A stretch of 64,000 bases of DNA from an uncultured Clostridia bacterium. Its GTDB lineage: Bacteria > Bacillota > Clostridia > Christensenellales > CAG-314. Below, piece after piece: positions 5,840-61,480 of this stretch (positions are counted from its first letter, which is position 1; each line of letters begins with the position of its first letter). The DNA is taken from positions 3,387-67,386 of the forward strand of contig CANQYT010000003.1 of NCBI GenBank assembly GCA_947628135.1. The letters are read 5' to 3'. The position numbers and the translations under genes were made by a program. The notes beneath the pieces are model-generated. The model worked only from the letters and a program-made list of their open reading frames with translations. It was not told the origin of the DNA and searched no databases.

Positions 5840-6751
5840 ATGCGTACGGTTATCGGTATCGCAGGGACTACCTCTGTGGGGAAAAGTGCGGTTGCAGTGA
5901 ATTTGGCGCAACTGCTCAAAACGGAAGTGATTTCCGCCGATTCTATGCAGGTATACAAAGGTATGGACGTCGGCACTGCAAAACTCACGCAAGAGGAAAT
6001 GCAGGGCGTAAAACACCGTATGCTGGACGTTGCAGAGCCGAACGAGCAGTTTTCTTCATTCTTGTATCAGCAGATGGCTTCGCAAATAATAGACGAAATG
6101 ACGACCGTCCCCGTAATAGTGGGTGGAACGGGATTTTATTTCGAAAGTTTGCTTTATCCTCCCGAATACGGAGACGCTCCGTCGGAAAGACGGGAAAGTC
6201 TGCGCAAAATTTACAAAGAGCAAGGTTTGGATGCGCTTCGCCGTATGTTGGCGGAGGAGGACGAAAAGGCGTACCGAACCGTCGATCTCAACAACTACAA
6301 ACGGGTAGTTCGCGCGATAGAGATTGCCGAAAGCGGTTTCAGCAGGGCGGAAGGAACGCACAAAAACGTTCAACCGCGATACGATATGAAATTTTTTGTT
6401 CTGCAACTTGACAGACAGCGGCTGTACGAAAGGATAAACGACCGCGTGGATACAATGGTGCAGCGCGGGCTGGTGGAGGAAGTTCGCGGCTTGATCGAGC
6501 GGTACGGCGTTTGCAAAACGCCCGCATTCGAGGCAATAGGCTACAAGGAAATAGTGCGCTATCTGCAAGGGGACTGTACATTGCAACAGGCAATTGAGGA
6601 AATAAAGATAAACACCCGTCACTATGCCAAGCGGCAAATCGCGTTTTTCAAGCGGTTGAACGTTGCCGAATATATAGACGTTGATGGTAAAGACTCGTCC
6701 GAAATTGCTTTTCACATCTACAATACCGTGCGAGAATGTATCGATATATGA
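5840..6751 (+). CDS. miaA: tRNA dimethylallyltransferase MiaA
   Basis: 303-aa ORF with P-loop GTTSVGKS and IISADSMQVYKGMDVGTAK. The ATG directly follows the mutL stop. Confidence 0.95.
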   Translation: MRTVIGIAGTTSVGKSAVAVNLAQLLKTEVISADSMQVYKGMDVGTAKLTQEEMQGVKHRMLDVAEPNEQFSSFLYQQMASQIIDEMTTVPVIVGGTGFYFESLLYPPEYGDAPSERRESLRKIYKEQGLDALRRMLAEEDEKAYRTVDLNNYKRVVRAIEIAESGFSRAEGTHKNVQPRYDMKFFVLQLDRQRLYERINDRVDTMVQRGLVEEVRGLIERYGVCKTPAFEAIGYKEIVRYLQGDCTLQQAIEEIKINTRHYAKRQIAFFKRLNVAEYIDVDGKDSSEIAFHIYNTVRECIDI

Positions 6752-6840: not shown

Positions 6841-8049
6841 ATGAACAAAGAAATAGCGGAAGCATTAGACAATACTCGGCAAATTTTTGCGGAATTGGAT
6901 GAAATCTCTCTCTACAACGAAAAAAAGGTTATCGACGCGTTTTGCAAAAACAACGTGGCTTTGAGGCATTTCAACGGGACGACCGGATACGGTTCGGACG
7001 ACGTAGGCAGAGAAACGCTTGGCAAGGTGCTTGCCGATATTTTCGAGGCGGACAAAGCGATAGTAAGTCCGTTGATTGCGTCGGGAACTGCGGCAATCAG
7101 TCTGGCGCTGTTCGGAGTGCTTCGTCCCAAAGATCGCGTTCTTTCCGTTACGGGGTCGCCTTACGATACGCTTTCCGACGTTGTTTTCGGAGAGGGAATA
7201 GGCAGTCTGAAAGATTTCGGAATTGATTTCGACGCGATAGACTTGGTGGACGGAGGGTTCGATTACCCTAAAATTGAACGTTATCTCAAAACCAACACCG
7301 TCAAAATGATTTACGTACAGCGTTCCAAGGGGTATGCGCTACGTCCCGCGCTTTCCGTAAAGCAAATAGGGCAACTGTGCGCATTCGTAAAGGAATATGC
7401 TCCCAACGCAGTTATTTTCTGCGACAATTGCTACGGCGAATTTGTCGAGAAAACCGAACCCACGTCGGTTGGAGCAGATTTATGCGCAGGCTCGTTTATC
7501 AAAAATATCGGCGGCGGGATCGCTCCTACGGGCGGATACGTAGTCGGGCGTGCCGATTTGGTGGATCTGGTCGCCGGAAGGCTTACCGCGCCATCCGTCG
7601 GAATGGAAATCGGAAGTTATCAGGCGGGTTACCGTTTGTTTTATCAGGGACTTTTCCTCGCGCCGCACACTGTCAATCAGGCACTGAAAACCGCAACGCT
7701 GTTTTCCTACGTTCTGTCTGAAAGAGGTTACGACGTAATTCCGAAAAGGGGCGATCATCTCGGGGATATCGTTTGTTCCATTCGCCTCGGGTCCCCGGAT
7801 TCGATGATAAAATTCTGCCGCGCAATTCAATCCGTGTCGCCCGTTGACGGGTTTGTAAAGCCCGAACCTTGGCGTCAGGCGGGTTATGCGGACAAAGTCA
7901 TTATGGCGGCGGGGTGTTTTGTTGAGGGCGCGTCCATCGAATTAAGTTGCGACGGTCCGATACGACCGCCCTATACGGTGTATTTGCAAGGCGGTTTGAC
8001 GCTGGAACACGGCATTTTGGCATTGGAAAAGGTGTTGGAAGAACTATGA
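6841..8049 (+). CDS. aluminium-resistance / methionine gamma-lyase family PLP enzyme (YnbB-like)
   Basis: 402-aa ORF with a good RBS (aaagagga). The N-terminal region and overall length match the family that neighbours hflX in Bacillus (ynbA-ynbB). Confidence 0.8.
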   Translation: MNKEIAEALDNTRQIFAELDEISLYNEKKVIDAFCKNNVALRHFNGTTGYGSDDVGRETLGKVLADIFEADKAIVSPLIASGTAAISLALFGVLRPKDRVLSVTGSPYDTLSDVVFGEGIGSLKDFGIDFDAIDLVDGGFDYPKIERYLKTNTVKMIYVQRSKGYALRPALSVKQIGQLCAFVKEYAPNAVIFCDNCYGEFVEKTEPTSVGADLCAGSFIKNIGGGIAPTGGYVVGRADLVDLVAGRLTAPSVGMEIGSYQAGYRLFYQGLFLAPHTVNQALKTATLFSYVLSERGYDVIPKRGDHLGDIVCSIRLGSPDSMIKFCRAIQSVSPVDGFVKPEPWRQAGYADKVIMAAGCFVEGASIELSCDGPIRPPYTVYLQGGLTLEHGILALEKVLEEL

Positions 8050-8304
8050 CAACAAGCTAATTTTTTCCGCTAAACTTCGATTTGTAAAACTAATTTTGCG
8101 CAATTGACAAAAAGATTAGGTGAATTTTGTTCAATTACAATAAAATTTTATTGTCGCACAAGGTAAGGCAAGATAGATTTTGCAACAAACGCAATTTTTG
8201 TCCGTAATCGAACGGTGCGAAATTATGTAACGAAGAAGTCGGCTGCGCGCGGCAAATTTGCGGTTTGCGCATAGGAAGGTTGCCTTGCGCAAAAGGAGAG
8301 GGCA

Positions 8305-8853
8305 ATGAAATTCGGAAACAGACTTGTCGAATTACGCGAAAAGCGCAACTTGTCGCAGGAGGAACTTGCCGACAAACTGCACGTATCGCGGCAAACCGTA
8401 TCCAATTGGGAGAATGACAAAGTAAGTATCGATGTTGACAAGGCGGCGGAAATATGCCGATTTTTCGGCGTGGATATGAATTATCTTTTTATGGAAAGCG
8501 GAAACGAGAGTTTGCGTGAAGATACCGTTTTCAATACAAGTCAACTCGACGCGCAAAACAGAGCAACCGGGTATACACGTTCGCAGTCACCTACCAAAAT
8601 CTGGCTTACGGCAATCATAATCAGCGTCGTAATGTGCGTCGTATTTACCGTGTTCGAAACGGTCGTTTTATTGCGGGGCGATATTGGAAATGCGGCAACG
8701 GTATTGACTTCGACGTTGTTGCTCTGCGCGGTCATATTCGGCGGTTTGGCGCTGTTGATGTCCCTTTTTATGCTTGTTTTGTCCGCTGTGATGTACCGCA
8801 GATCCAAACAAAAAGACAGCGCAGAGACCAATTGTGACGGCACAAAACAATAA
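8305..8853 (+). CDS. XRE-family HTH regulator with C-terminal transmembrane segments
   Basis: 182 aa. The N-terminus LRE-KRNLSQEELADKLHVSRQTVSNWEN is a classic HTH_3. The C-terminal half has 2-3 hydrophobic helices. RBS aaaggagag. Confidence 0.85.
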   Translation: MKFGNRLVELREKRNLSQEELADKLHVSRQTVSNWENDKVSIDVDKAAEICRFFGVDMNYLFMESGNESLREDTVFNTSQLDAQNRATGYTRSQSPTKIWLTAIIISVVMCVVFTVFETVVLLRGDIGNAATVLTSTLLLCAVIFGGLALLMSLFMLVLSAVMYRRSKQKDSAETNCDGTKQ

Positions 8854-9025
8854 GGTCGACGAATTTTCGACTGATTTTTATAGTTGACTATCGCAAACGA
8901 AAAAAAACTTAAAGCCGTGATTAGATTTTTGATTGCAATCAACAAGTCTGCGCGCATTGCCTCCTCCAACACAGTAGATTTTTTTGCGTAAATAAAATAC
9001 GGGAGATTACAACGAAATTGATTGT

Positions 9026-9100
9026 CGGAAAAATACAAAAAAGTGGTGAGTTCGGTACGTGAAAATAGGGAAAGACCTACGAACATTCAACACAGGGGAT
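9026..9100 (+). repeat. copy 1 of a duplicated ~75-bp module (SD-like GGTGAG plus GTG start)
   Basis: 'cggaaaaatacaaaaaagtggtgagttcggtacgtgaaaat...' aligns without indels to 9490-9530 at an offset of 464 nt. Confidence 0.8.
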
Positions 9101-9489
9101 TACAACGAAAAAGAATCGCTCATAAAATATAAATTCAAAAGGATTCAACGGACATTTTTTTTACAGCGCAAAGACAATTTTTTCGGTTTCAAAATGCGGT
9201 TTGTCGCTCAGTTACTACAATATGAAAAAACTTTGGAAGCTATTACCGACAGTTTTTCTCGTATGGTTAATAGCCAGGAAAACCTGTATTTCAAGACTAT
9301 CTGCTGAATAATAAGAGATGTAAACTTTCCGAAAATATTTTTGTAATCGAGTCAAAATTGATTGATTTAACAAATCAACTTAAAAAATCGTAAAATAAAG
9401 TGTAACCAACTAACGAAATCTCTGCCCAAAATTTATATTATAAAAAAATGCAAACTTTTAATTTCCATTTTTTAGTAATAATTAATTGG

Positions 9490-9565
9490 CGGAAGAATAC
9501 GAAAATGGGGTGAGTTCGGTGCGTGAAAATTGGAGAATTACGACGAATATTCAACTTTGATTACG
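9490..9565 (+). repeat. copy 2 of the duplicated ~75-bp module
   Basis: 'cggaagaatacgaaaatggggtgagttcggtgcgtgaaaat...'. The downstream reading frame stops after 22 codons. Confidence 0.8.
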
Positions 9566-10329
9566 TCCGTTTCAGAAGTATCTTAGCATAGCGAGACATA
9601 AAAAATCAGTCGCAAACTACACAGCGACTTGTCAATTTTATTTATCACTTCGACAATTGAATAGTGCGTTACAGCGGAAATATTCTTCATACAAATTATG
9701 CTTTCAAACTAAGAAAAAAGAATTAGAGATTTTCAAACTATCTCCCCAATATGATTCTGATTACTGTTTTGTTCTATGCTTTTAATACGATTAAAAAAGC
9801 GCCGAATTCGTAATTAAAAAAAATTGAAGTTTTTCTTATGTCTCTAAAAGAGGTTTAGCGGAACTTTTAACAAAATTTTTAAGTTATAAAGAAAGTCGTA
9901 TTTACATTTTTATGAAAACCGTCGATAAAGACCGTTACAAGTTTTTTTGATTTCGTCGAATCGTTGTTTCACTCGGAGTCGCGACAAAAATTTATCAAAA
10001 ATATCTTAGCATTCAATTTACTCAAAAAAAGTGATGTAATTAATTTCGTAAATGCTTTACGTCCTTTTTAGCATTAAAAAAACAACGTTGTGATTTTATA
10101 AGATTATTTGGCTAAGCAAAAGCGCGAGAAGAATCAAGATTTTAAAAGAAGTTTTCAGCTTTCCAAACTGTCTCACAAAGACGTTTTAACAGAATTTTGT
10201 ACTAAGTGCGAGAAGAAGTTGATGATTTTTCGAAGCGTCGCTTTAACGGCAGCGAATAAATTTTTTGTTACGGATATTTTTATTAAACATAAAATTCAAA
10301 CGGATTAAAATGATAACAAAGCAGCACAA

Positions 10330-10457
10330 AATAAAATCAGATAAGTCGTTAGAGCGCAGTAAATCGACAATAAAGATTTGAACACGAAATAATTGTTTTG
10401 TTTAAGAGTAATAAAGTGAATTACATAGAATTATCAAAATTTGAAGGCGAGGCAGTT
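10330..10457 (+). repeat. left arm of an imperfect inverted repeat (best-conserved core 10416-10457)
   Basis: 'gtgaattacatagaattatcaaaatttgaaggcgaggcag' matches the reverse complement of 10979-11020. Weaker similarity extends ~125 bp outward ('aaaataaaatcag', 'tagagcg'). Confidence 0.8.
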
Positions 10458-10556
10458 CATAGTCCGTTGTAAAGGAATATTTGATAATTTATTTTATAAA
10501 GAATAATTTCGGACGTTTCAGAAGCAAAACCACTCTCAAAAATCGCTTTTTTACCC

Positions 10557-10594
10557 ATATCTATTCGCAAAAGCTGCCTTTTGCGAATAGATAT
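10557..10594. other. perfect 17-bp stem / 4-nt loop hairpin
   Basis: 'atatctattcgcaaaag' ctgc 'cttttgcgaatagatat'. It lies inside the inverted-repeat-flanked unique core. Confidence 0.85.
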
Positions 10595-10867
10595 GTATTA
10601 GTGTGCTTATGCCTCATACATCAAAAAACTATTCGCGCCGCATCTTTTGCCGTTGAAATTCTTGTCAATACAGAGCCGTGCTGTAACCATTAAGAGAGAT
10701 AAATTTTGGCAACGACATTGCCGTCAAAGAGCAATCAGCTGAGATTCTCGCCCCACCAAATGTGAAACTCTTTGTAACAACAGCAACCGAATTGCACCGC
10801 CCCTAACAGAATTTTCAGTCAGACCGAGCAAAAAAGTTCAAACTCGAATTTTCAGCGTGACACATCA

Positions 10868-10905
10868 GCGCTTCCGGAGGAGATAATATTCGGTAGCGCC
10901 TTTTT
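10868..10905 (+). terminator. candidate intrinsic terminator inside the unique core
   Basis: Stem gcgcttccg / cggtagcgc with one internal mismatch and a 14-nt loop, followed by cTTTTTg. Confidence 0.4.
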
Positions 10906-10978
10906 GCACTACATTTACGGCGATCGGTTCTTAGCCGGTGTTAATATAAGTTAATAGTCATTCTATAAAAGGTGTACG

Positions 10979-11100
10979 ACTGCTCGCCTTCAAATTTTGA
11001 TAATTATAGTAATTTCACGTACTACTTAACAAAATAATTAGTACGCAATCTCATTTGAAGATTACGCTCTACTAAGACGTCTCTGATTTTATTTTCAATC
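10979..11100 (-). repeat. right arm of the imperfect inverted repeat
   Basis: The reverse complement reads 'gtgaaattactataattatcaaaatttgaaggcgagcag', matching the left arm apart from a few mismatches and indels. Confidence 0.8.
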
Positions 11101-11114
11101 AGCGAAGAAATAGA

Positions 11115-11326
11115 GAGTACGTTTTGGAACGTGTACTTGCATTTACAAACTAACTCGTAATAGTTCCTCGCGGGAAGTTGCTCAAAGCATATTCAATACT
11201 AAACTTTATTTTAAGTTTTATTCTCGGCAAAAACTTTTACCTTGTAAAAAACTCTTTTCAAAGAGAACAGTAGCACCCCGGAAAACAAAAAATTGACTTC
11301 TATTAGCACAGACTTTGAAAAAAAAG
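11115..11326 (-). repeat. repeat-family copy L (inverted relative to 14956-15170)
   Basis: It aligns along its full length to the reverse complement of 14956-15170. Roughly four of five positions are identical by eye. Confidence 0.85.
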
Positions 11327-11694
11327 CAGCAAATAAAGACTTGTTTAAGATTCGTTGACTTTATTGTTTTGTACCGTTCAATTGCTCTTTATGCAGTCTC
11401 ATTGCTTGGATATGCTTTGTACACCACAACGGGCAAAACACACATAACAAGGGATATCAAAGCGCCAAACCTCCGAATATTTTGCGCGAGCAATGCGGTT
11501 ATGCTCAATCGCTATCTGTAAACTGGCGACATATTTGTTTTGAAACTTCCAAAAGCCATATTGCACTATTCCTTTTGACAATTTCAAACGTGATTGTTTT
11601 GCAAACAGTGTGACAAAATGATGTTTCAATGTCAACCCTGCTACACCACCCTTTGATACCGTCAAATTTTATGTAAAAATTATTCGCAAAATAT

Positions 11695-11723
11695 TTGCTT
11701 TACGAATAGATTAGCGTTATAAT
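11695..11723 (+). promoter_or_regulatory. candidate sigma-A promoter ~200 nt upstream of the recombinase gene
   Basis: TTGCTT, 17-nt spacer, TATAAT. Confidence 0.4.
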
Positions 11724-11923
11724 ATAGTTGACAACAAACAAAATATATAAAATTAGACGAAAATACGGGCGAAAAGGCAGAATTTCAATCAATTTCTCAC
11801 CTGCAAACCGCATTTCAAACAGAAAATTTTTTGCGACGTAGAAAAAACGGGCATTCGCGTTTCGTTGAATCCCCTGTTACACCGCCGCTCGCCGTCAGAA
11901 CATATAAAAAGGAGAACAACACC

Positions 11924-12991
11924 GTGAGTCAAACCTATTTCAACAACAGAGACGCCGAAAATCTCGAAAAATTGGACAAAATACTCGATGAGGATCTGCC
12001 CGACTTCTGTCGTGAATACTTCGTCGGTATATCCGCTAACACAACAACGCTTACGAGGTTGAACTACGGCTACGACATACGCACGTTTTTCAACTATCTC
12101 GTGACGAAAATTTCCCGTTTCAAGGGCAAATCGTCCAAGGAAATCACTCCTCACGACATCGAATCGCTGTCCCCCTTTGAAATCGAGGCGTATCTTAGTT
12201 ACGTCGAGATATACCGCAAGGACGGCAACATTGTCAAAAACGGCGCGCGCGGAAAAAGCAGAAAACTTGCCGCTATACGCTCTATGGTGAAATATTTCGA
12301 AAAGAAGCAAATAATTCGCTACAACCCCACCGCATCCGTAGACACTCCCAAATTGCGCGAGAAAGAAATTATCCGACTTGACGGCAACGAAATAGAAACT
12401 ATGCTCGACGTCGTGGACACAGGCGAAGGGCTCACCGAACGCCAGCAAAAATACCAGGAAAACACCCGTATTCGCGATCTGGCAATGGTAAGTCTGCTCC
12501 TCGGGACGGGCATACGCGTAAGCGAACTTGTCGGAATAGATATAGACGACGTCAATTTCGACGATCTGAGTTTTGTCGTTACGCGCAAAGGCGGCGCGAG
12601 GGTTATTTTGTATTTTTCGGAAGAAATTGCCGGATACTTGTACGATTACTACTGCCGCCGCGTTGCCGACAGCACTGTAAAAGACGAGCCCGCGCTTTTC
12701 CTTTCCCTGCAAAAAAGGCGCATAACCACTCGCGCGGTAGAAAACATTGTAAAAAAATACAGCCTTGTCGCTACGCCGCTGAAACATATCACGCCTCACA
12801 AACTGCGCTCCACTTTCGGTACGCAACTCTACCGCAACACGGGGGACATTTACGTAGTTGCCGACGTTCTCGGACACAAGGACGTCAACACTACCAAACG
12901 CCACTATGCGGCGATCACCGAGGACATTCGGCGCAATGCAAGTACGAAAATCAGTCTCAGGCGCACGCCGACGGACGACGACGGAGAATAA
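11924..12991 (+). CDS. Xer-like tyrosine site-specific recombinase
   Basis: The ORF opens at 11831, but GTG at 11924 follows aaaaGGAG. An N-terminal SAM-like domain is present. The catalytic region carries GIRVSEL, HKLRSTFGT, LGHKDVNTT and the nucleophile Tyr in TKRHYA. Confidence 0.88.
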   Translation: MSQTYFNNRDAENLEKLDKILDEDLPDFCREYFVGISANTTTLTRLNYGYDIRTFFNYLVTKISRFKGKSSKEITPHDIESLSPFEIEAYLSYVEIYRKDGNIVKNGARGKSRKLAAIRSMVKYFEKKQIIRYNPTASVDTPKLREKEIIRLDGNEIETMLDVVDTGEGLTERQQKYQENTRIRDLAMVSLLLGTGIRVSELVGIDIDDVNFDDLSFVVTRKGGARVILYFSEEIAGYLYDYYCRRVADSTVKDEPALFLSLQKRRITTRAVENIVKKYSLVATPLKHITPHKLRSTFGTQLYRNTGDIYVVADVLGHKDVNTTKRHYAAITEDIRRNASTKISLRRTPTDDDGE

Positions 12992-12993
12992 AT

Positions 12994-14241
12994 ATGGATA
13001 TAAAGATAGAAAACGTTGCGTTGATGTACGTGGAATTACCGGACAGCAATGCCGAACAGGATATTTACGAACTTACCGAACTTATCCGTACCGCGCAAGG
13101 TGAAGTAAAACTGCAATGTACGCAAAAGCGCAGCAGCGTCGACCCCGAAACAGTAGTTGGCAAAGGCAAACTCGAAGAGTTGAAAAGCGCGTTGGATTGC
13201 CGTGACGATATCGACGTGGTGATTTTTTCCTGTCGGTTGAGCGCAACGCAGCGCACCGTCCTCAAAAAGGAATTGAACTGCGACGTAATAGACAAAATCG
13301 ACTTGATATTGGACATCTTCGCGCTGCGCGCCACCTCCGCAGAAGGAAAAAAACAGGTGGAATTGGCTCAACTCACCTACAACCTCGCCACCAAGCCGAG
13401 CGGCGACTTTTCACGGCAGGGCGCAGGAATAGGCACGCGAGGTCCGGGCGAAACCAAGTTGGAAACAAACAAGCGCGTCGCCCGCGAACGAATTTACCGA
13501 TTGCGCAGAGAATTGAACGAGATAGAAAAACGGCGCGAGTTAACTCGTAAACGCCGCGAGGAAAACGGAGTGTTTACAGTGGCTCTCGTCGGCTACACCA
13601 ATGCGGGGAAATCTACCCTTTTCAACCGTCTGACACAGGCGCAAGTTTATGCGGACGACAAACTTTTTGCAACGCTCGACACCACCGTCAGACGTATAAA
13701 AATGGATAATGGGGTGGAAATTTTGCTTTGCGACACGGTCGGGTTTATCAACGATTTACCGCACGCATTGCTCAATGCTTTCAAGTCAACGTTGGAGGAG
13801 GCAACGCGCGCAGATTTGTTGCTGAACGTATGCGACGCCTCCGACGAAAACGTTGCGCAGCACATAGAGGTCACCGAGCGCACCCTCGCCGAGATCGGCG
13901 CTTTTGCACCGCTTGTGCGCGTTTACAACAAGTGTGACAAACTGACATCCGAAGCGATGGGCAGGGCAGCCTTCGGCGATTCGGTAACGTCCGTATTCGT
14001 GTCCGCGCTCACGGGGAAAAACGTTGACGTGCTTTCGGAAATTATCGCTCGGTACGTTTCGGAAAAATATGCCGTCGTGTCGCTTCGTGCCGCTCACACG
14101 GAAAGCGCAAAACTGCTGTCGGAACTGAACAAATACGGTGCGAACTGCCTTGACGTGTCGTACGATGACGCAGGCGTAAGGATAAAAGCCGTTCTGTCGA
14201 AAAAATACGTCGGAGCGATAGCAAAATACGTCTCTTTGTAA
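12994..14241 (+). CDS. hflX: GTPase HflX
   Basis: 415 aa with the HflX N-domain (GKGKLEELK...), G1 GYTNAGKST, G3 DTVGF and G4 NKCD. Confidence 0.93.
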   Translation: MDIKIENVALMYVELPDSNAEQDIYELTELIRTAQGEVKLQCTQKRSSVDPETVVGKGKLEELKSALDCRDDIDVVIFSCRLSATQRTVLKKELNCDVIDKIDLILDIFALRATSAEGKKQVELAQLTYNLATKPSGDFSRQGAGIGTRGPGETKLETNKRVARERIYRLRRELNEIEKRRELTRKRREENGVFTVALVGYTNAGKSTLFNRLTQAQVYADDKLFATLDTTVRRIKMDNGVEILLCDTVGFINDLPHALLNAFKSTLEEATRADLLLNVCDASDENVAQHIEVTERTLAEIGAFAPLVRVYNKCDKLTSEAMGRAAFGDSVTSVFVSALTGKNVDVLSEIIARYVSEKYAVVSLRAAHTESAKLLSELNKYGANCLDVSYDDAGVRIKAVLSKKYVGAIAKYVSL

Positions 14242-14255
14242 GCGGAAACATTTTT

Positions 14256-14269
14256 AGAACAATTGTTTG
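14256..14269. promoter_or_regulatory. LexA (Cheo/SOS) box upstream of lexA
   Basis: 'aGAACaattGTTTg' differs at one position from the Firmicute GAAC-N4-GTTC consensus. It lies 44 nt upstream of the lexA ATG. Confidence 0.6.
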
Positions 14270-14277
14270 TTTTTGTA

Positions 14278-14306
14278 TTGCGCAAAAAGAAAAAACGTGC
14301 TACAAT
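14278..14306 (+). promoter_or_regulatory. candidate lexA promoter (extended -10)
   Basis: TTGCGC, 17-nt spacer, TGcTACAAT. The -10 hexamer ends 7 nt before the A of the lexA ATG, and no SD lies in between. Confidence 0.5.
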
Positions 14307-14312
14307 AAACGT

Positions 14313-14915
14313 ATGAAAAAAGGGGAGATCCGAGTAGAGAAAATATACAAATTCATCAGAAGATTCGTCGATGACAACGGTTTTCCGCCCTCCGTGCGTG
14401 AGATTGGACAGAAATTCGGAATTAAATCCACCTCCACGGTACACTACTATCTGGAAAAATTGCGTAATCGCGGTCTCATTTCGCAGGACGCCAACAAGAA
14501 ACGCGCCTTTTCCGTCACGCAATCGCGGGTACAATCCAACTATGTGCCGCTTGTCGGCAACGTAAGCGCAGGCACAGGCATACTTGCCGTGGAAAATATC
14601 GAGGGCGAATTTCCATTGCCTCAGGATATTTTTTCCGGCAAAGACCTGTTTATGTTGCGCGTGGAAGGGGACAGTATGATCGACGTCGGTATCTCCGACG
14701 GTGATTTTGTGGTCGTACAATCGCAGAGTTCTGCCGACGTAGGCGACTTAGTCGTGGCGTTGTGGCAGGAGAAAGCCACCGTAAAACGCCTCGCCGCACT
14801 ATCGCCCAATCTTGTGTTGCACCCGGAAAACAGTCGGCTGGACGACATAGTGATTCCTCCCGACGAAGATCCCGCCATTATCGGTAAGGTAGTCGGTTGC
14901 ATAAAACGTTTCTGA
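14313..14915 (+). CDS. lexA: LexA repressor
   Basis: 200 aa with an N-terminal winged HTH (PSVREIGQKFGIKSTSTVHYYLEKL). The S24 peptidase core carries GDSM and VKRL. Confidence 0.95.
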   Translation: MKKGEIRVEKIYKFIRRFVDDNGFPPSVREIGQKFGIKSTSTVHYYLEKLRNRGLISQDANKKRAFSVTQSRVQSNYVPLVGNVSAGTGILAVENIEGEFPLPQDIFSGKDLFMLRVEGDSMIDVGISDGDFVVVQSQSSADVGDLVVALWQEKATVKRLAALSPNLVLHPENSRLDDIVIPPDEDPAIIGKVVGCIKRF

Positions 14916-14932
14916 TATTGTTTACGTAAACG

Positions 14933-14962
14933 CAGTCCCGTTTGTTTTCGGGACTGTTTTTT
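14933..14962 (+). terminator. intrinsic terminator of lexA
   Basis: cagtcccg tttgtttt cgggactg followed by TTTTTT. Confidence 0.85.
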
Positions 14963-15170
14963 CAAAGTCTGCGAGAACAAAAGTCAAATTTTTGTTTTCG
15001 GGTGTTCTACTGCCGCTCTTTTGAAACGAGTTCTTGCAGAGTGAAGTTTTTGCCGAGAATAAAACGCAAAATAAAGTTTAGTATTGGAATTATGTTTTTA
15101 ACAACTTCCCGCAAGGAACTAACACAAGCAGAGTTTGTAAATGCAAATACACGTATTCCAAAACGTACTC
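14956..15170 (+). repeat. repeat-family copy R (inverted partner of 11115-11326)
   Basis: See copy L. It starts at the U-tract of the lexA terminator. Confidence 0.85.
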
Positions 15171-15500
15171 TTTTTTTTTGACTCGAAGTATGTGCTAAAA
15201 GTTTAGTATTGTAATTTAGCTTTGAACAATGTCCCGAATAGCAATTACGCGCGAAATTTGTTAATATAAACATACGTTTCTCAAAACGCACCCTATTTCT
15301 TCACTCGAAGTACGTGCTATACGTTGAAATTTGTGCGAATTTTAGTGATTTTTCAAAACCAAATTTAGTATTGGAATTATGCTTTTAACAACTTTCCGCA
15401 AGGAACTAACACAAGCAGAGTTTGTAAATGCAGATAGACGTATTTCAAGACATACTCGGTTTCTTCGCTCTAAGTCACGGGCTATGTTGGAATTTGTACG
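15073..15500 (+). repeat. three tandem diverged units (about 125-165 bp each) of the same repeat family
   Basis: Units start at 15073, 15197 and 15361 ('aaagtttagtattggaattatg...'). Units 1 and 3 are very similar, and unit 2 is more diverged. Confidence 0.85.
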
Positions 15501-15504
15501 TATT

Positions 15505-16335
15505 TTACAGATTTTTTAATATGCTGTATTTTTCCAAAAGACGGTCGCACTCGCGATAGTCTGGAACTGCATTCGAAACAAACTCCCAAAAACCTTCGTC
15601 GTGCAGCGTATGTTCGAAATGTGCAAATCCGTGCGCAATCACGTATCGCCGCAAATCGGGCGGAAGTTGCGCCAGACGAAAGTCAAAGCAAAGGGATCTG
15701 CTCGCCGCAAGCGAGCACTTCACCCAAAAGTCGGCGTTGTCTCTGAATTCTATTTTTACGGGACAAAGGGAAACGGCGCTTCCAAATGCCGCAACTTCCT
15801 CAGCCACACGCTCCTCTGCAACTCTTTTCAAAAAATTTTTGACGGCTTTTAGGCGCGCGTCCCTGTCGGAAAAATGCTTTTCGGAAATGAACAACACGTC
15901 TTTTTCCAGGTAACTTTTGTTTCCAATCGCCGAACGCACGTTTACGACGTTGCCGTTCAAAATGGTCTTGTATCCGTTTATTATGTCTTTTTTGTCGTCG
16001 CGTACGGGCAGATTCCTTTCCTCGGCAATAGGTTTTACGTAGCGACCCGCTTGCGCGTAATTTACTTCGGGTTTGTTGTTTTGCGTCAATACGGGCGGAT
16101 TCTCCTTTTTTTGCGACTTTATCCAGCCCATATTGTCGGCGATAACTTGTTTTATGCGCTTGTCTGACATAAAGGCGTACGCCGTCACTTTCAGCACGCC
16201 CGCCTCTACTTTCAGTTTTACCACGCGCCTGAGCGTCCTTGTCAACTCCACTTTCATAGTCAAAAGTGTAACGTCCTTTTGCTGAAAATATTTGATTTCT
16301 TTTACAAATTCTGCAATTTTATTGTCAAAAAGCAC
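15505..16335 (-). CDS. DUF45/YgjP-like (M48-type) metallopeptidase homolog with a degenerate HExxH motif
   Basis: 276 aa with a GTG start after gaaagg. The C-terminal region IAHGFAHFEHTLHDEGFW aligns with the family HELxHxxxxNH motif, but Glu is replaced by Gly. Confidence 0.7.
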   Translation of the reverse strand: MLFDNKIAEFVKEIKYFQQKDVTLLTMKVELTRTLRRVVKLKVEAGVLKVTAYAFMSDKRIKQVIADNMGWIKSQKKENPPVLTQNNKPEVNYAQAGRYVKPIAEERNLPVRDDKKDIINGYKTILNGNVVNVRSAIGNKSYLEKDVLFISEKHFSDRDARLKAVKNFLKRVAEERVAEEVAAFGSAVSLCPVKIEFRDNADFWVKCSLAASRSLCFDFRLAQLPPDLRRYVIAHGFAHFEHTLHDEGFWEFVSNAVPDYRECDRLLEKYSILKNL

Positions 16336-29597: not shown

Positions 29598-29853
29598 ATT
29601 TATCTCCTAAAAAAAGCCCCAAGCGAAATGCTTAGGGCGATAAAATTTGTCGCGGTACCACCTAATTCAAGAGACAGAGTCTCTCCTTTGATGTTTGCTA
29701 ACGGAAACAACCCGCAAGCGGCTACTTTGCTTTCACCGTTTGAACTCGGAAGGGAATATCTTTTTGCGCGCATACGGGGCTTGCACCATCCCCCGTTCGC
29801 TGAAAATGCGTTGATCGCAAACTCTTGTGCTTCGTCAACGTTTGTATTTAGTA
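29598..29853 (-). promoter_or_regulatory. T-box leader (Phe, specifier UUC) controlling pheST
   Basis: The minus strand carries the T-box 'gaattaggtggtaccgcgac' (29649-29668). A terminator cccuaagc/gcuugggg plus U7 follows. A candidate specifier 'gagUUCaaa' is at 29742-29744. Confidence 0.88.
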
Positions 29854-34761: not shown

Positions 34762-35268
34762 ATTTCTCCTATTTCTTGGCAATTTCGCCGTTTTTGTTTT
34801 CCAAATCGAACGCCGACGGAAAAAGCGTCTCCTTTTCGTCGCTGTTGCTTCCGAATTTTCTTTCCTTTGGATATTTCATACAGTCATTGTTGACAACAAA
34901 AGGAACGTTTATTCACGACGCGGGGCAATGGAAAACACGCCGTTGCAAAAACCTTTCAGTTTCATTACAGCCTGTAAACTGAGTTGGAAAAACAGCCCAA
35001 TCACGTAGCATATCGGTAAACGTCCCGAACTATGTAATAAATTTTAATTTCATCGCCTCGTGCATTTTGATTGGTGTTGAGATTTTTATTATGGTGAATT
35101 TATTTGAGAATTGTCGATGTATTTCAATGTGTGACTTCTTTTATCGGGAAAAGATATCGCTGTCACGCTGCTCATTTTTTGTCCAATTTCTTTTGATTAA
35201 ACAATAGTGATTTCATTATCTTGAAAGAAATTTTTCGGTTTTCGAAAGCAAATAAATTGCCTTTTTGG

Positions 35269-35289
35269 ATACTATGTGTGTAATAGTAT
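35269..35289. promoter_or_regulatory. palindromic motif site S4 (ATACTAT-gtgtgta-ATAGTAT)
   Basis: Perfect 7-bp arms with a 7-nt spacer, in the ORF-free region upstream of the spoVA operon. Confidence 0.5.
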
Positions 35290-35439
35290 TTTATAAATTG
35301 CCGAAAAACGGTATAGTTTAACTGAAAATAAGCGCAAATTCTTATAGAAAAAAAGTAGGATTTCTTTAATCAGACTATACAATATAAGAATGTTTTTATT
35401 GACCACAATTTTATTGTATCAAAATATTTATAATATAAC

Positions 35440-35815
35440 TCAATGGAGAAAACGTTCACAATGCAAAACCCTTGATTGTGATTTGAACACAAAGTTATAT
35501 TCAAAATTATTTATATGATTTTTAACCAGAGGTTAACTGCGATGCAAAATCGTTAATTGCAGGTTACCAAAAATTTTGCGCAATCACTTCATTATGCTTT
35601 TAATGAAATATCGTCATTTCACAAATATATAAAATTTCTTTAATTAGAGATTACACACAAAGAAAACTAGTTTAATTATGCCTTGAACGATATTTTACGT
35701 ATTATAAAATTCGTTTAACCAAAGATTCTATGCAATGTAAAATCGTTATTTCAGATTACCCACAATGCGACGTGAAAGTGTTTGATTATGCTTTGACGAA
35801 AATCATCGTAGTATA
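35440..35815 (+). repeat. degenerate tandem modules (~95-190 bp period)
   Basis: The recurrent pattern is 'atgcaa..aaaatcgtta.tt.cag.ttacc...attatgcttt.a.g.aa.atc.tc'. Modules start near 35521 and 35712, with partial copies at 35446 and 35641. Confidence 0.65.
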
Positions 35816-35861
35816 AATAATTTATTTTTTGCTACAAGCAAAATTATTTTATCTGTCGATA

Positions 35862-35892
35862 ACAAAATAAAAACCCGCCGAATATCGGCAGG
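35862..35892 (-). terminator. intrinsic terminator of glgA
   Basis: The minus strand reads ccugccg auauu cggcggg followed by UUUUUAUUUU. Confidence 0.8.
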
Positions 35893-35915
35893 TCGAATAA
35901 AACTTTTTACGTAAT

Positions 35916-37337
35916 TCACTCCATCGCCTCGTCGTACAATTTGTCGTACTTTTCGGCGGAGACTTTCCAAGTGAAGTCGGTGCGCATCGCTTTGCTTACA
36001 AGCGCTTTCCATCGAGTTCGATCGCGGTACACCTCCATTGCCTGACGCAGTACGTACAGCATATCGTGCGCGTTGTAGTCGGCAAAAGTAAATCCGTTGC
36101 CGCCGTTGCCGTAGGGGGTGATGCTGTCTTTAAGTCCGCCCGTTTCCCGCACTATCGCCACCGTGCCGTAGCGGGAAGCAATCATTTGCGAAAGTCCGCA
36201 AGGCTCGCTGCGCGACGGCATAAGAAACATATCCGCCCCGGAGTAAATTTGCCGCGACAAAGCCGAATTGAATGCAATCACCGCCGCTACTTGCTGAGGG
36301 TGACGCAACGCCAATTCCGTAAAGAAATGTTCGTAGTAACCGTCGCCCGTTCCGAGGATAACAAACTGCACGTCGTCCTGCAACGCCTCGTCGATAACAG
36401 CCGTCACCAGATCCAACCCTTTGTGCGCCACCAAGCGCGAGATCATCGCGACAACGGGCGTGTTCGGGCGGACGGGAAGATTGAACATACGTTGCAACTG
36501 TTCCTTGCACACCGCCTTGTTTTGCGGCTTTTTCGCGTCGTATTTGGCGTAAAGAGCGTTGTCAGTCGCAGGGTCGTAGTAGTCGGGATCTATGCCGTTC
36601 AGTATTCCGCGCAATTTGGATTCGTTTCGACGTATAATAGAATCCAACCCGTGCGAAAAATAGGGAGTTTTTATCTCCTCGGCGTAACTTGGCGACACGG
36701 TGGAAAGACGGTCGCAGCACTCTATCGCGCCCTTCATCAGATTTATACAGCCGTTGTATTCCACCAAGCCCTGATAGTAAGCGTCAATTCCGAAAAGCCA
36801 TTGCAGATTGTCCAACGAATATTTTCCCTGATATTCTATGTTGTGAATGGTAAACACCGTGCGAACGTTGCAAAAACGCGAATCTCTGCAATAAATCGTT
36901 TTCAGATAAATTGCGGCAAGCGCGGCTTGCCAATCGTGACAATGTATTACGTCGGGCGTAAAATCTACAAGGGGCAGAATTTCCAACGCGCTCCGACAGA
37001 AGAAAGCGAACCTTTCCCCGTCGTCGAAATGTCCGTAACACCCTTTGCGCTTGAAATAGTACTCGTTGTCCGTAAAGTAGAACGTTACGCCGTCTTTTTC
37101 GTAGCAAAAAACGCCGCAGTATTGATTTCTCCACGCAACGGGAACGTTCACACTGCCGATAAACCGAAATTTTTCGCGCCACTTTCCCTCTATATCCGAG
37201 TACAGCGGCAGCACCACACGCACGTCGCAGCCGCGTTCCGCCAACGCTTTGGACAGCGAGCCGACAACTTCCGCCAAACCGCCCGTTGCTACAAAGGGCG
37301 CGGCTTCCGAAGCTACAAACAATATCTTTTTCATCAT
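35916..37337 (-). CDS. glgA: glycogen synthase GlgA
   Basis: The ATG at 37337 (MMKKILFVASEAAPFVATGGLAEVVG) follows aaaGGTGAG. The ORF track start at 37391 is an upstream extension. Confidence 0.94.
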   Translation of the reverse strand: MMKKILFVASEAAPFVATGGLAEVVGSLSKALAERGCDVRVVLPLYSDIEGKWREKFRFIGSVNVPVAWRNQYCGVFCYEKDGVTFYFTDNEYYFKRKGCYGHFDDGERFAFFCRSALEILPLVDFTPDVIHCHDWQAALAAIYLKTIYCRDSRFCNVRTVFTIHNIEYQGKYSLDNLQWLFGIDAYYQGLVEYNGCINLMKGAIECCDRLSTVSPSYAEEIKTPYFSHGLDSIIRRNESKLRGILNGIDPDYYDPATDNALYAKYDAKKPQNKAVCKEQLQRMFNLPVRPNTPVVAMISRLVAHKGLDLVTAVIDEALQDDVQFVILGTGDGYYEHFFTELALRHPQQVAAVIAFNSALSRQIYSGADMFLMPSRSEPCGLSQMIASRYGTVAIVRETGGLKDSITPYGNGGNGFTFADYNAHDMLYVLRQAMEVYRDRTRWKALVSKAMRTDFTWKVSAEKYDKLYDEAME

Positions 37338-51374: not shown

Positions 51375-51434
51375 ATCTCTCCGTAATATATTTTTAGCAG
51401 AAAATGTTTGATAGGTTTTCTGCTCGAAGTAACA

Positions 51435-52052
51435 AAAAAAGGTGGTGACTCGTCGGATAAACCTTACGGCATAGGTTCAGTAGGGTTTCCCAAGCAAAAA
51501 CTTCCCGTCGCCGAAGAAGCAGTTTCCTCTTAGTTTCGCCTGTGCGGCATCACTGCTCGCACAACTGAATCGCCACTTAGTCCGTACTATAATCTCCGAC
51601 AAGCCTGAATTGCAGTCTAGAAGATTTCCTTTGCAGATGCCGACGTATTTTAGTTTCTTTTGCAGAATTCATTTCGTAAAGCATTCGAGCGCGCGCCGTA
51701 GGCCAACGGATACGCGTCGTTCAGTACTCCCAAAATTCCACTCAAAACAAGCTACACTGTACACAGCTTCGTATTCACCGCATAGCAGGTTTAACCTCAG
51801 AGAGTAATTGCTTATCTATTAGGCAACCACCCCGTAGAGTCTCCGCGACTGATGGGGATAGAGCGTATGCCGTTACGCCTTACCCACCAATCTTAACTTC
51901 CAGCACCAGCCCCCGTTTGGGCAACGAAAGCAAGCACAAGAAACTTCATCGTTGTGCCCGTCGACGGTCTTTTAGGCCCGCCTTCAATACGTCGATTTCT
52001 GACTAGAATACTGCACCACCGATTTTATTTAGTTGTATCGGGTTCTCACCCG
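51435..52052 (-). ncRNA. ole: OLE (ornate, large, extremophilic) RNA
   Basis: ~620-nt ORF-free, GC-richer, helix-dense segment between ispA and oapA, with its own promoter. The 5' GGUGGUG (52014-52020) pairs with 3' CACCACC (51442-51448), which is followed by a U-run. GNRA and UUCG-type hairpins are present. The synteny nusB-folD-xseAB-ispA-[RNA]-oapA-dxs matches the described OLE locus. Confidence 0.75.
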
Positions 52053-60417: not shown

Positions 60418-61480
60418 ACAATAAAATATTGGACAAGCATTTGTTTTATGCCTGATATCGGCGATAATAAAACGCGTTGCGAACGTTGCCAATTTCCTGC
60501 ATAAAGGACTAAGAAATCACCGCCGGATAAAACACGAAAATTTTTACAGCAAAATTAACCGTCGAATTATCCGACGGCTCTGCAAGTAATTACAACTGTT
60601 TCTCCTTGACTCCGAAAATTACACGTTTCAAAAATGTGCTTTCCTTTAACAACACAGAATTTTTCTATGAAAAGATTTATTTTCCACTCAATTTTTTGCG
60701 TGTTTCTCCCCTTTCGCTCACACGCTTATATTCTTTTATGCAAGTTGGCGGCGAAATAATTTCGCTTGTTTTACTTTAACATTTCGACACAAAACACGTC
60801 GCAATATTCGCTGTCAGTGCCACCGCTTTTTATGCAATTACTCCAATCAAATGCACTTTCGCTATCTCATCTATTGTCAAACCCGGTGGACTTTTACACG
60901 TACAATAAATACCCGCCGACAAAGTTGTCTCTATTAAAAAATGTATACGTTAAAAATGAGGTAAGATATGTTTAATTACAAGTTAAAAACCCTTGATTAA
61001 ATCAAACGCAGAATTTTCAGCAAATATAAATCGATGTTTGCGCGTATACACACGCTTGCAACTCGATAAAACCGCAGATATACTGACTTTTATTGTTGAC
61101 ATTGGCAACAAAGAAAATTATCAACAAGAATGTATTAAGAAAATTGAATGGTGATCTTCTTTTTTATAAAATGATTGTCTTTGTTTTTCCATAAAATAAT
61201 CTTCGTTGCTTTTGCATAGTATAAGTTTCCTTTTTTTGATATTTCCTAAAAATAAACTTTTTGCTTTCTTATAAAAAATTTTATAATAAAAATTTTCTCT
61301 CGTTCTTAGGGGCAAAGCAAGGACTGAGTACGTTTCTACATACTATATTCCTGTATTGTTCAATTGACTATAACGCTCGCAATGTTGCGGCGACGTTTTT
61401 TCAAAAAAAGCCGACCGCTTCGGAAACCTCCAAAGGGATCGGGCAAGCCGTCGCATATTACGAAAATCGGAGTACTCAGT

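Follow-up and report, generated by a model that had tools for sequence, protein, structure and literature searches.

A probable replication terminus with a palindromic dif site and a cassette slot beside a XerS-like recombinase gene in an uncultured gut clostridium

Positions 8854 to 11923 of the window, a stretch of 64,000 nucleotides (64 kb) from an uncultured gut member of the Clostridia, separate a gene for an XRE-type helix-turn-helix (HTH) protein from a gene for a tyrosine recombinase. The interval is best read as the replication terminus of a Christensenellales-like gut Clostridia chromosome, a reading to which we assign a probability of roughly 0.8. The terminus would contain a dif site, a second dif-like site (site 2) in the promoter of the recombinase gene, a slot for gene cassettes between the two, and filler. 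The evidence consists of the anatomy and conservation of dif, its position in the GC skew, the breakpoints between strains, the sharing of cassettes across species, and a circular contig that carries a dif mimic.

The proposed scheme is as follows. A XerS-like recombinase would bind both arms of dif and resolve chromosome dimers there, as do XerS at difSL and XerH at difH. At site 2, the recombinase would repress its own promoter. Small elements that lack an integrase and carry a dif mimic, rolling-circle Rep replicons included, would insert into the slot, be replaced, and decay there, in the manner of integrative mobile elements exploiting Xer (IMEX). The slot of the window would now hold a gene-less relic. 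The filler and an inverted patchwork within the slot would stem from local partial duplications and old insertions, and would have no function of their own. A broader proposal is that a new single-recombinase Xer system, XerS-like yet separate from XerS, is widespread in these Clostridia, in which dif is palindromic and site 2 both autoregulates the recombinase gene and, with dif, forms a fixed landing pad for replicons and cassettes that are swapped within and between species. We would give this broader proposal even odds.

Two conserved sites at a skew switch

Comparison with related genomes finds two short islands conserved amid unconserved DNA. Homologs of the recombinase and the XRE protein led to two sister species (L208 to L211, with 95% identical recombinases, and L212 to L214). 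Over xer-hflX-lexA, their DNA identity to the window is about 76–77% for L208 to L211 and about 74% for L212. Within the gap between the flanking genes, they align with the window only at 10526–10596 (84–88% identity) and 11676–11730 (92–96%). The gap was also compared by blastn with 80 loci, kept from 559 recombinase-related stretches in the GTDB species set. Only the palindrome at 10556–10595 is matched and, in near relatives, also ~11664–11731. Among the closest species, ynbB and the recombinase gene are as little as 291 bp or as much as 5.6 kb apart. Therefore, the gap is not a conserved locus as a whole.

The first island, 10526–10596, holds dif. The core site is 28 bp long (10562–10589) and consists of two perfect 11-bp arms and a 6-bp center, TATTCGCAAAA-GCTGCC-TTTTGCGAATA. 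It lies within a longer perfect palindrome, 18+4+18, that extends from 10556 to 10595. The initial annotation, which was made from the sequence alone, missed this palindrome, its imperfect twin at 11681–11708, and the GC-skew switch. The dif pattern has two matches in the window, the perfect site and site 2, where 0.02 are expected. When an arm match of at least 17/22 is counted as a site, 59 of 81 loci have one upstream of the recombinase ortholog, and these include orthologs with as little as 50% identity. Several of the loci with no match have hardly any sequence upstream of the ortholog. Across the 59 loci, the inner arms (CAAAA/TTTTG) show little or no variation, the 6-bp center is variable, and the outer arm positions co-vary symmetrically (TATGCGTAAAA..TTTTACGCATA, TTTGCGCAAAA..TTTTGCGCAAA). 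Conservation reaches about 15 bp per arm (tATC...GATa). This anatomy is that of a tyrosine-recombinase core site with, putatively, one protein species on both arms; it is the symmetry of the arms that suggests a single protein species.

The cumulative G-C curve of the window has its maximum at 10524, 38 bp from dif. That is, the cumulative skew climbs to 10–11 kb and then declines across the remaining 53 kb. The skew was also followed in the 53 loci that have at least 3 kb on each side of the site (21-kb loci and the 64-kb window). In 45 of them its sign changes at the site, from plus on the left to minus on the right, and in several the local maximum is no more than 60 bp away. Gene orientation turns at the same place, with genes on the plus strand before the site and mostly on the minus strand after 15.5 kb.

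Published descriptions recognize dif as an AT-rich palindrome of about 30 bp that lies near the skew maximum, in noncoding DNA with variable flanks (PMC9765430; also PMC3025954). The 10562–10589 segment has these properties, including the noncoding position and a conserved site between varying flanks. The distance from the recombinase gene to dif is 30 bp to 4.6 kb among the loci, 1.3 kb in the window, and 30–400 bp in many relatives. Many lineages have a single site, with ordinary genes such as serS, or nothing, between the site and the recombinase gene.

Two further observations concern the surroundings of dif. Many loci, whatever their cassette type, have a GTGTG-rich motif on the right-hand side of dif, 9–15 bp away (10600–10606 in the window); the motif may belong to the site, as an extension on one side, or to an end that the cassettes share. 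Polar k-mers that would guide FtsK were considered and set aside, as the skewed 7-mers (GCGGTGG, 20:0) are inseparable from gene-orientation bias in 64 kb. The FtsK-type motifs of Lactococcus and Bacillus are uninformative in the window.

The recombinase gene extends from 11924 to 12991 on the plus strand. Its start codon is GTG at 11924, behind a ribosome-binding site, AGGAG, at 11910–11914. The product has 355 residues and matches Pfam Phage_integrase (1.6e-32). The best NCBIfam model is XerS (NF003462), followed by XerA, XerC, and XerD. The XerS match is full length, with residues 14–344 aligned to profile positions 7–357 of 360, at 173 bits versus an equivalog cutoff of 267 bits. Because the score is under that cutoff, the protein is named XerS-like rather than XerS. 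PDB matches are to XerA, XerD, and XerH, with the catalytic R, H-x-x-R, H, and Y positions aligned. The motifs GIRVSEL, HKLRSTF, GHKD, and RHY line up with XerA and XerD and supply the R, H-x-x-R, H/W, Y signature. Reported sizes are 356 residues for XerS, 354–362 for XerH, and ~298 for XerC/XerD (PMC5357621). At 355 residues, the protein fits the XerS/XerH class and not that of XerC/XerD. A recombinase of about 356 residues encoded beside its own site at a skew shift is also the XerS layout, and such linkage of gene and site has been described for both XerS/difSL and XerH/difH (PMC1914069, PMC5357621).

The 120 listed homologs of the recombinase, from Clostridia metagenome bins, descend without a break from 100% to 78% identity. 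The recombinase gene is followed by hflX and/or lexA in over half of the 80 kept loci. From this linkage it follows that the recombinase behaves as a resident gene, not as the integrase of a mobile element. It would act on dif and on site 2, would presumably do so alone, and may depend on FtsK.

The second island holds site 2 (11681–11708, plus strand), an imperfect dif-like site, TATTCGCAAAA TATTTG CTTTACGAATA, with an arm match of 20/22. It overlaps the -35 element of a recombinase promoter that was read from the sequence. The -35-like TTGCTT (11695–11700) covers the center and the right arm of site 2, and is followed, after a 17-bp spacer, by TATAAT (11718–11723). Site 2 and TATAAT are found at a fixed spacing in eight loci (the window, the same-species strain L001, L208–L210, L212, L008, and L009). 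The site has the form TTATTCG(C/T)AAAA tatttg CTTTACGAATA in these; one left-arm C is T in L212 and L009, and the sites are otherwise identical. L010, L011, and L013 have kept only the left arm of site 2, beside an equivalent promoter. The distance from site 2 to the start codon is 49–407 bp among relatives, i.e., the leader varies in length. In the window, the rest of the promoter and a 5′ leader of ~200 nt occupy 11709–11923 on the plus strand and are 94–95% identical in L001. The simplest reading of site 2 is that the recombinase would bind its own promoter; by doing so, it probably represses its own gene. In the strain alignments described next, the cassette slot also ends at site 2.

The slot between dif and site 2

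The slot (10590–11680) stands out when close strains of sister species are aligned. L208 and L209, which belong to one species, match at 99.95% identity over at least 6.7 kb, as far as the right edge of dif. Between dif and site 2 they contain unrelated DNA, 868 versus 1458 bp. The alignment resumes at the left edge of site 2; the strains are 2–3% different from there to ~100 bp past lexA, and then identical again. The whole differing tract runs from 8726 to ~13090 and comprises the cassette and a diverged xer-hflX-lexA block, with dif as one of its ends. L212 and L213 are 98.7% identical up to the edge of dif and diverge after it, L213 ending before site 2. Beyond that edge, a Rep_OBD gene is present in L213, and open reading frames (ORFs) of 230 and 156 residues are present in L212. 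This 230/156-residue cassette (type C) is 90–93% identical in L209, L212, and L009, the core genes of which are 69–75% identical. Since the cassettes are more alike than the core genes, the cassette has moved between species into the same slot.

Rep_OBD genes, of the rolling-circle type, are found directly to the right of dif in L013, L213, L215, L216, and L218, and a small XRE-type repressor often accompanies them. No integrase is found in the 2.2-kb element of L013. The element of L216 is bounded by dif (5565) and by a degenerate second site (8142). L219 is a 3.4-kb contig that encodes a Rep of the same family and carries a dif mimic, TATTCGCAAAG-N7-TTTTGCGAATA. The 121 bp at its start recur unchanged at its end, so that the contig probably represents a circle of 3.3 kb. 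The elements of the relatives have the hallmarks of IMEX: no integrase of their own, a position adjoining dif, a dif-like junction (L216), and a dif mimic on a circular contig (L219) (PMC5357621, PMC9765430). Replacement of one cassette by another could proceed through a site borne by the element, through homologous recombination in the flanks, or through both.

In the window, the slot holds no element gene, i.e., no intact element, and appears to contain a decayed cassette. The 10612–10772 segment shares 76% identity with the stretch that separates dif from the Rep_OBD gene in L213/L214, and looks like the stump of a Rep-encoding element. Farther right is a patchwork of three contiguous inverted copies, as follows. 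The copy at 10979–11095 comes from 10328–10456, that at 11101–11326 from 14954–15177, and that at 11333–11480 from the 3′ end of the XRE gene and its terminator (8734–8881). The last of these went unnoticed in the initial annotation; it includes a diverged inverted copy of the terminator at 11333–11377. Read backwards, the patchwork mirrors the left flank of dif in the order XRE end, repeat, and dif-adjacent sequence. Diverged inverted repeats straddle dif in two species, with unrelated sequences (10328–10456 and 10979–11095 in the window; ~8191–8303 and ~8786–8896 in L208). This suggests that mirror-image duplication across the putative terminus site recurs.

One segment of the slot differs in orientation between strains. 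In the window, 11267–11385 (119 bp) is inverted relative to L001, where it matches 12995–13125 on the opposite strand with 91% identity; its only flanking repeats are AAAGAG/CTCTTT. A small inversion polymorphism is one possibility, a switch another. An invertible promoter was considered and set aside, as the flanking repeats are only 6 bp long and no convincing promoter is present.

The presence of two related sites bounding a slot, beside a recombinase gene, raises the question of what the recombinase is mainly for. An integron-like or switch-like platform, in which it would chiefly capture, exchange, or invert DNA between sites, is also in keeping with the inverted 119-bp segment and with the 226-bp inverted repeats around xer-hflX-lexA. 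We consider such a platform unlikely. Its expectations are at odds with the placement of the site at the skew switch in 45 of the 53 loci and with the many lineages that have a single site. The recombinase resembles the Xer families, and scores 56 and 43 bits with the integron integrase models versus cutoffs of 265 and 435. The integrase score thus gives no ground for integron membership, attC sites not having been searched for. In addition, the 119-bp segment has no Xer-type flanking sites. The position in the skew, the lineages with one site, and the resemblance to Xer proteins argue for dimer resolution as the primary role, beside which an integron-like or switch-like activity may exist.

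Filler, repeats, and alternative readings

Left of dif, the segment 8882–10525 is AT-rich, species-specific, and without a recognizable gene. Its contents include a 31-nt fragment of hflX at 8940–8970 (the reverse complement of 13791–13821, 29/31), which had been overlooked, two duplicated modules, and the left arm (10328–10456) of the inverted repeat that straddles dif. It has no DNA similarity to any sister-species locus, and there is no sign in it of RNA structure (folding) or of coding (Pfam, PHROGs). The interval between the XRE gene and dif is ~1.7 kb here, ~427 bp in L210 and L212, and 1085 bp in L208. We read the left 1.7 kb as unconstrained filler. The low GC fits noncoding or acquired DNA in a 50% GC genome.

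The XRE protein is encoded on seven metagenome contigs of the same species, six of which are essentially identical to the window. The seventh, L001, is ~97–98% identical in genes, 100% identical over 8251–10250, and far more diverged over 10250–11500. The 2 kb of full identity stand amid flanking genes that are 2–3% different, which indicates that 8251–10250 is a putative recent recombination tract spanning the XRE gene and most of the left filler.

The initial annotation portrayed the interval as a mosaic of short recurring modules. Two of these are real duplications: a 76-nt module (9016–9091 and 9480–9555, 80% identical) and a 31-nt module containing GATTACAACGAAA (8987–9017 and 9080–9110). 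Two shorter repeats, cgtttcagaag and atcttagcat, are indeed present, within 18–19-nt matches of 84–89%, but they are near chance by a rough estimate of the level of 10–11-nt repeats in 3 kb of AT-rich DNA. No tandem repeats are found in the interval. Of the claimed copies, in both orientations, of a repeat family located near 15 kb, one exists. It is inverted (11101–11326 versus the reverse complement of 14954–15177, 81% over 226 bp), and there is no copy in direct orientation.

The source copies of this family occupy 14954–15475 on the plus strand, downstream of the lexA terminator, and are made of units of ~115–125 nt (15067–15190, 15198–15310, and 15354–15475). The repeats are missing from the sister species, where lexA abuts ygjP, and they differ in copy number and sequence in L001. 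The units have no Rfam match and no RNA-structure signal. The 226-bp inverted repeats (11101–11326 and 14954–15177, 81%) bracket the whole xer-hflX-lexA block. In outgroup lineages, the dif-xer-hflX-lexA block has the opposite orientation relative to mutL-miaA-ynbB and ygjP. A metagenome scan with a 17-mer from a repeat unit gave 120 matches, from unrelated environments and none extending beyond the seed, and these were discarded as chance.

How much of the interval is simply debris? The initial annotation offered a graveyard of decayed genes or mobile DNA as one option, and for most of the bases this description holds. About 95% of the bases are unconserved in the sister species, the length varies from 291 bp to 5.6 kb, and homologs are lacking for every ORF. 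The interval contains pieces of the XRE gene and of hflX along with a local repeat copy, and the slot hosts mobile cassettes in relatives. The description breaks down at the two islands. These are 84–96% identical where core genes are ~76% identical; the dif island recurs in 59 of 81 loci, at the skew switch, and site 2 keeps a fixed register with the -10 box. Nor was a recognizable series of pseudogenes found by tblastn with the ORFs of the window and the cassette proteins of the relatives. When all window ORFs were compared with the interval, only the 3′ end of the XRE gene, the short hflX piece, and the repeat from near 15 kb were matched. Among the small ORFs of the interval, Pfam searches with two and PHROGs searches with eight gave zero matches, and homologs of the 88-residue ORF (11399–11665, minus strand) were not found. 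A PHROGs search with one small ORF of the lexA–ygjP repeat region likewise gave zero matches, as did blastn of the interval against phage and plasmid collections. Plain gene decay, with no functional element in the interval, is therefore hard to sustain at the islands, and we regard it as quite unlikely.

The other option, a dedicated noncoding locus, survives narrowly, as two conserved sites of a protein-binding type, but not as an array. Its RNA version, a cluster of small RNAs or one large structured RNA, could appeal to the long ORF-free stretch with duplicated modules and to a count of promoter-like matches over 8000–15600 of 23 versus 15.0 +/- 3.6 in shuffled sequence. The searches speak against it. 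Nothing in Rfam reaches the gathering threshold, and the E-value mode yields two eukaryotic matches at chance level. The duplicated modules and the repeat units from near 15 kb fold like shuffled sequences (z -0.83 to +0.64), and conservation is absent outside the two sites. Structured RNAs would not typically have 31% GC where the genome has 50%. The small-RNA cluster is dropped, and an RNA locus of any kind is very unlikely.

A replication fork trap, in which the ~120-nt units (11101–11326 inverted, and three at 15067–15475) would be Ter-like sites, is likewise very improbable, for although the repeats are oppositely oriented and no more than 5 kb from the skew switch, both groups lie on the same side of dif, are missing in the sister species, and vary in copy number between strains, and no candidate termination protein was identified.

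Several points weigh against a terminus with dif, site 2, and slot. Its support is comparative throughout. The uniqueness of dif and the skew maximum were assessed within 64 kb of the genome. The conserved perfect hairpin could be an RNA or terminator element, though it has no T-tail. The recombinase falls short of the XerS cutoff, at 173 versus 267 bits. The left 1.7 kb is accounted for no further than as not conserved. A tblastn search of the gap with the cassette proteins of relatives (Rep, the 230- and 156-residue proteins, and other ORFs) gave zero matches. The right end of the tract exchanged between L208 and L209 is ~100 bp beyond lexA and not at site 2, which fits homologous recombination for that end. 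Finally, the centers of dif and site 2 (GCTGCC and TATTTG) have almost nothing in common. Direct recombination between dif and site 2 is not expected for that reason, and excision by this route is doubtful.

Relation to known systems and other features of the window

Among the closest known systems is XerS/difSL of streptococci and lactococci, where gene and site form one module at the skew shift (PMC1914069, PMC5357621). As there, one long recombinase of 355–356 residues, presumably acting alone, is encoded in linkage with a site at the GC-skew shift, the inner arms are of the TTCnnAAAA/TTTT flavor, and XerS is the best NCBIfam match. The site itself differs, in that difSL is 31 bp long with unequal arms and a longer center (PMC5357621), whereas here the arms are perfect over 11–15 bp and the center is 6 bp. 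The host, a gut clostridium, the gene-to-site distance of 30 bp to 4.6 kb, and the extra site embedded in the promoter also set the present system apart.

XerH/difH of Helicobacter and Campylobacter (PMC3325230, PMC5241119) is likewise a single recombinase of ~355–360 residues near a site with symmetrical arms and a GAAAA-type inner motif. Unlike XerH, the present recombinase is found in another phylum, and its similarity to XerH is weak (PDB 5jjv, 32 bits, below XerA and XerD). XerL/dif of the Legionellales (PMC9765430) shares the long uninterrupted inverted repeats near the skew maximum. It was also revealed by an integrase-less element, LME-1, that carries a dif mimic (PMC9765430). However, xerL is more than 400 kb from dif, whereas the gene is linked here, and the recombinase clades differ. 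The mobile DNA here, in contrast to LME-1, comprises gene cassettes and small Rep_OBD rolling-circle replicons.

The elements of the slot resemble IMEX such as CTXphi, TLCphi, and the gonococcal island (PMC5357621, PMC4246890). They are integrase-less, lie beside dif, and may have a degenerate dif-like site (L216). Further common traits are a rolling-circle Rep accompanied by a small repressor of the XRE type, and a circular form, here the contig L219, that carries a dif mimic. Those IMEX use the XerC/XerD of Proteobacteria. Here, the slot is bounded by a fixed second chromosomal site in the promoter of the recombinase gene, and cassettes that are unrelated to one another succeed each other between the same two sites. 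The pdif modules of Acinetobacter (PMC12907356) are also DNA modules bounded by Xer-type sites and swapped between replicons. They differ in being mostly plasmid-borne, XerC/XerD-dependent, multi-site arrays, whereas here there is one slot at a chromosomal terminus.

The interval can be explained by known biology, namely a terminus with dif, a linked Xer-type recombinase, and an IMEX slot with debris. What seems new is the variant: gut Clostridia with a XerS-like enzyme, the dif of which is perfectly palindromic and the gene of which has, in its promoter, a site 2 that fixes the slot. No description of Xer/dif or of IMEX elements in this lineage was found in the open-access literature. The initial annotation found the interval odd in a core-gene neighborhood. 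The oddity is real but is accounted for by the terminus: once the GC-skew switch and the Xer-type recombinase are recognized, a gene-poor region beside core genes is no longer strange.

For a large group of gut Clostridia that are uncultured and represented only by metagenome bins, the reading predicts where replication terminates and where chromosome dimers are resolved. It would be of use in genome finishing, in coverage-based estimates of replication rate, and in annotating a recombinase labeled only as a tyrosine recombinase/integrase. Single-recombinase Xer/dif modules would be extended past the Streptococcaceae, Epsilonproteobacteria, Legionellales, and Archaea. In addition, a narrowly targeted natural integration slot, with matching small replicons, is a possible genetic tool for these organisms.

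The surroundings of the interval are as first described. By the ORF list, no ORF of more than 88 residues overlaps 8854–11923 except for the ends of flanking genes. The GC content is 0.31–0.36 over 9001–12000 versus ~0.48–0.52 in most of the window. Upstream are mutL, miaA (5840–6751), ynbB, which encodes a YnbB-like methionine gamma-lyase (6841–8049), and the gene for the XRE-HTH protein, which has a hydrophobic tail (8305–8853). A terminator scan finds a hairpin and T-run, GGTCGACGAATTTTCGACT then GATTTTTATA, adjoining the XRE stop codon (8854–8881, plus strand). After the interval, the order is recombinase gene, hflX, lexA, a repeat-rich spacer, ygjP (minus strand), and padR.

The XRE protein evolves fast, with 63% identity where the recombinase is 95% identical. 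It has sub-threshold NCBIfam matches to RstR of CTXphi and to the Xer activation factor VC1465, which probably reflect generic HTH similarity. The idea that the XRE gene is part of a recently inserted element was rejected, as the gene, though fast-evolving, is syntenic in the sister species.

The window as a whole is a Firmicute-type chromosome segment. It contains a full-length ornate large extremophilic (OLE) RNA at 51426–52035 (minus strand, 438 bits) and a T-box leader at 29630–29847 (minus strand). The palindrome ATACTAT-N7-ATAGTAT occurs five times (6804, 16356, 21467, 35269, and 48803), where 0.07 occurrences are expected. The copies sit between ORFs, one of them between ygjP and padR, and the palindrome looks like the operator of a multi-target regulator. 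Two more AT-rich stretches lack long ORFs, 34783–35915 and ~60500–61260, with a GC content of 0.30 over 35001–36000; the first of them holds one copy of the palindrome.

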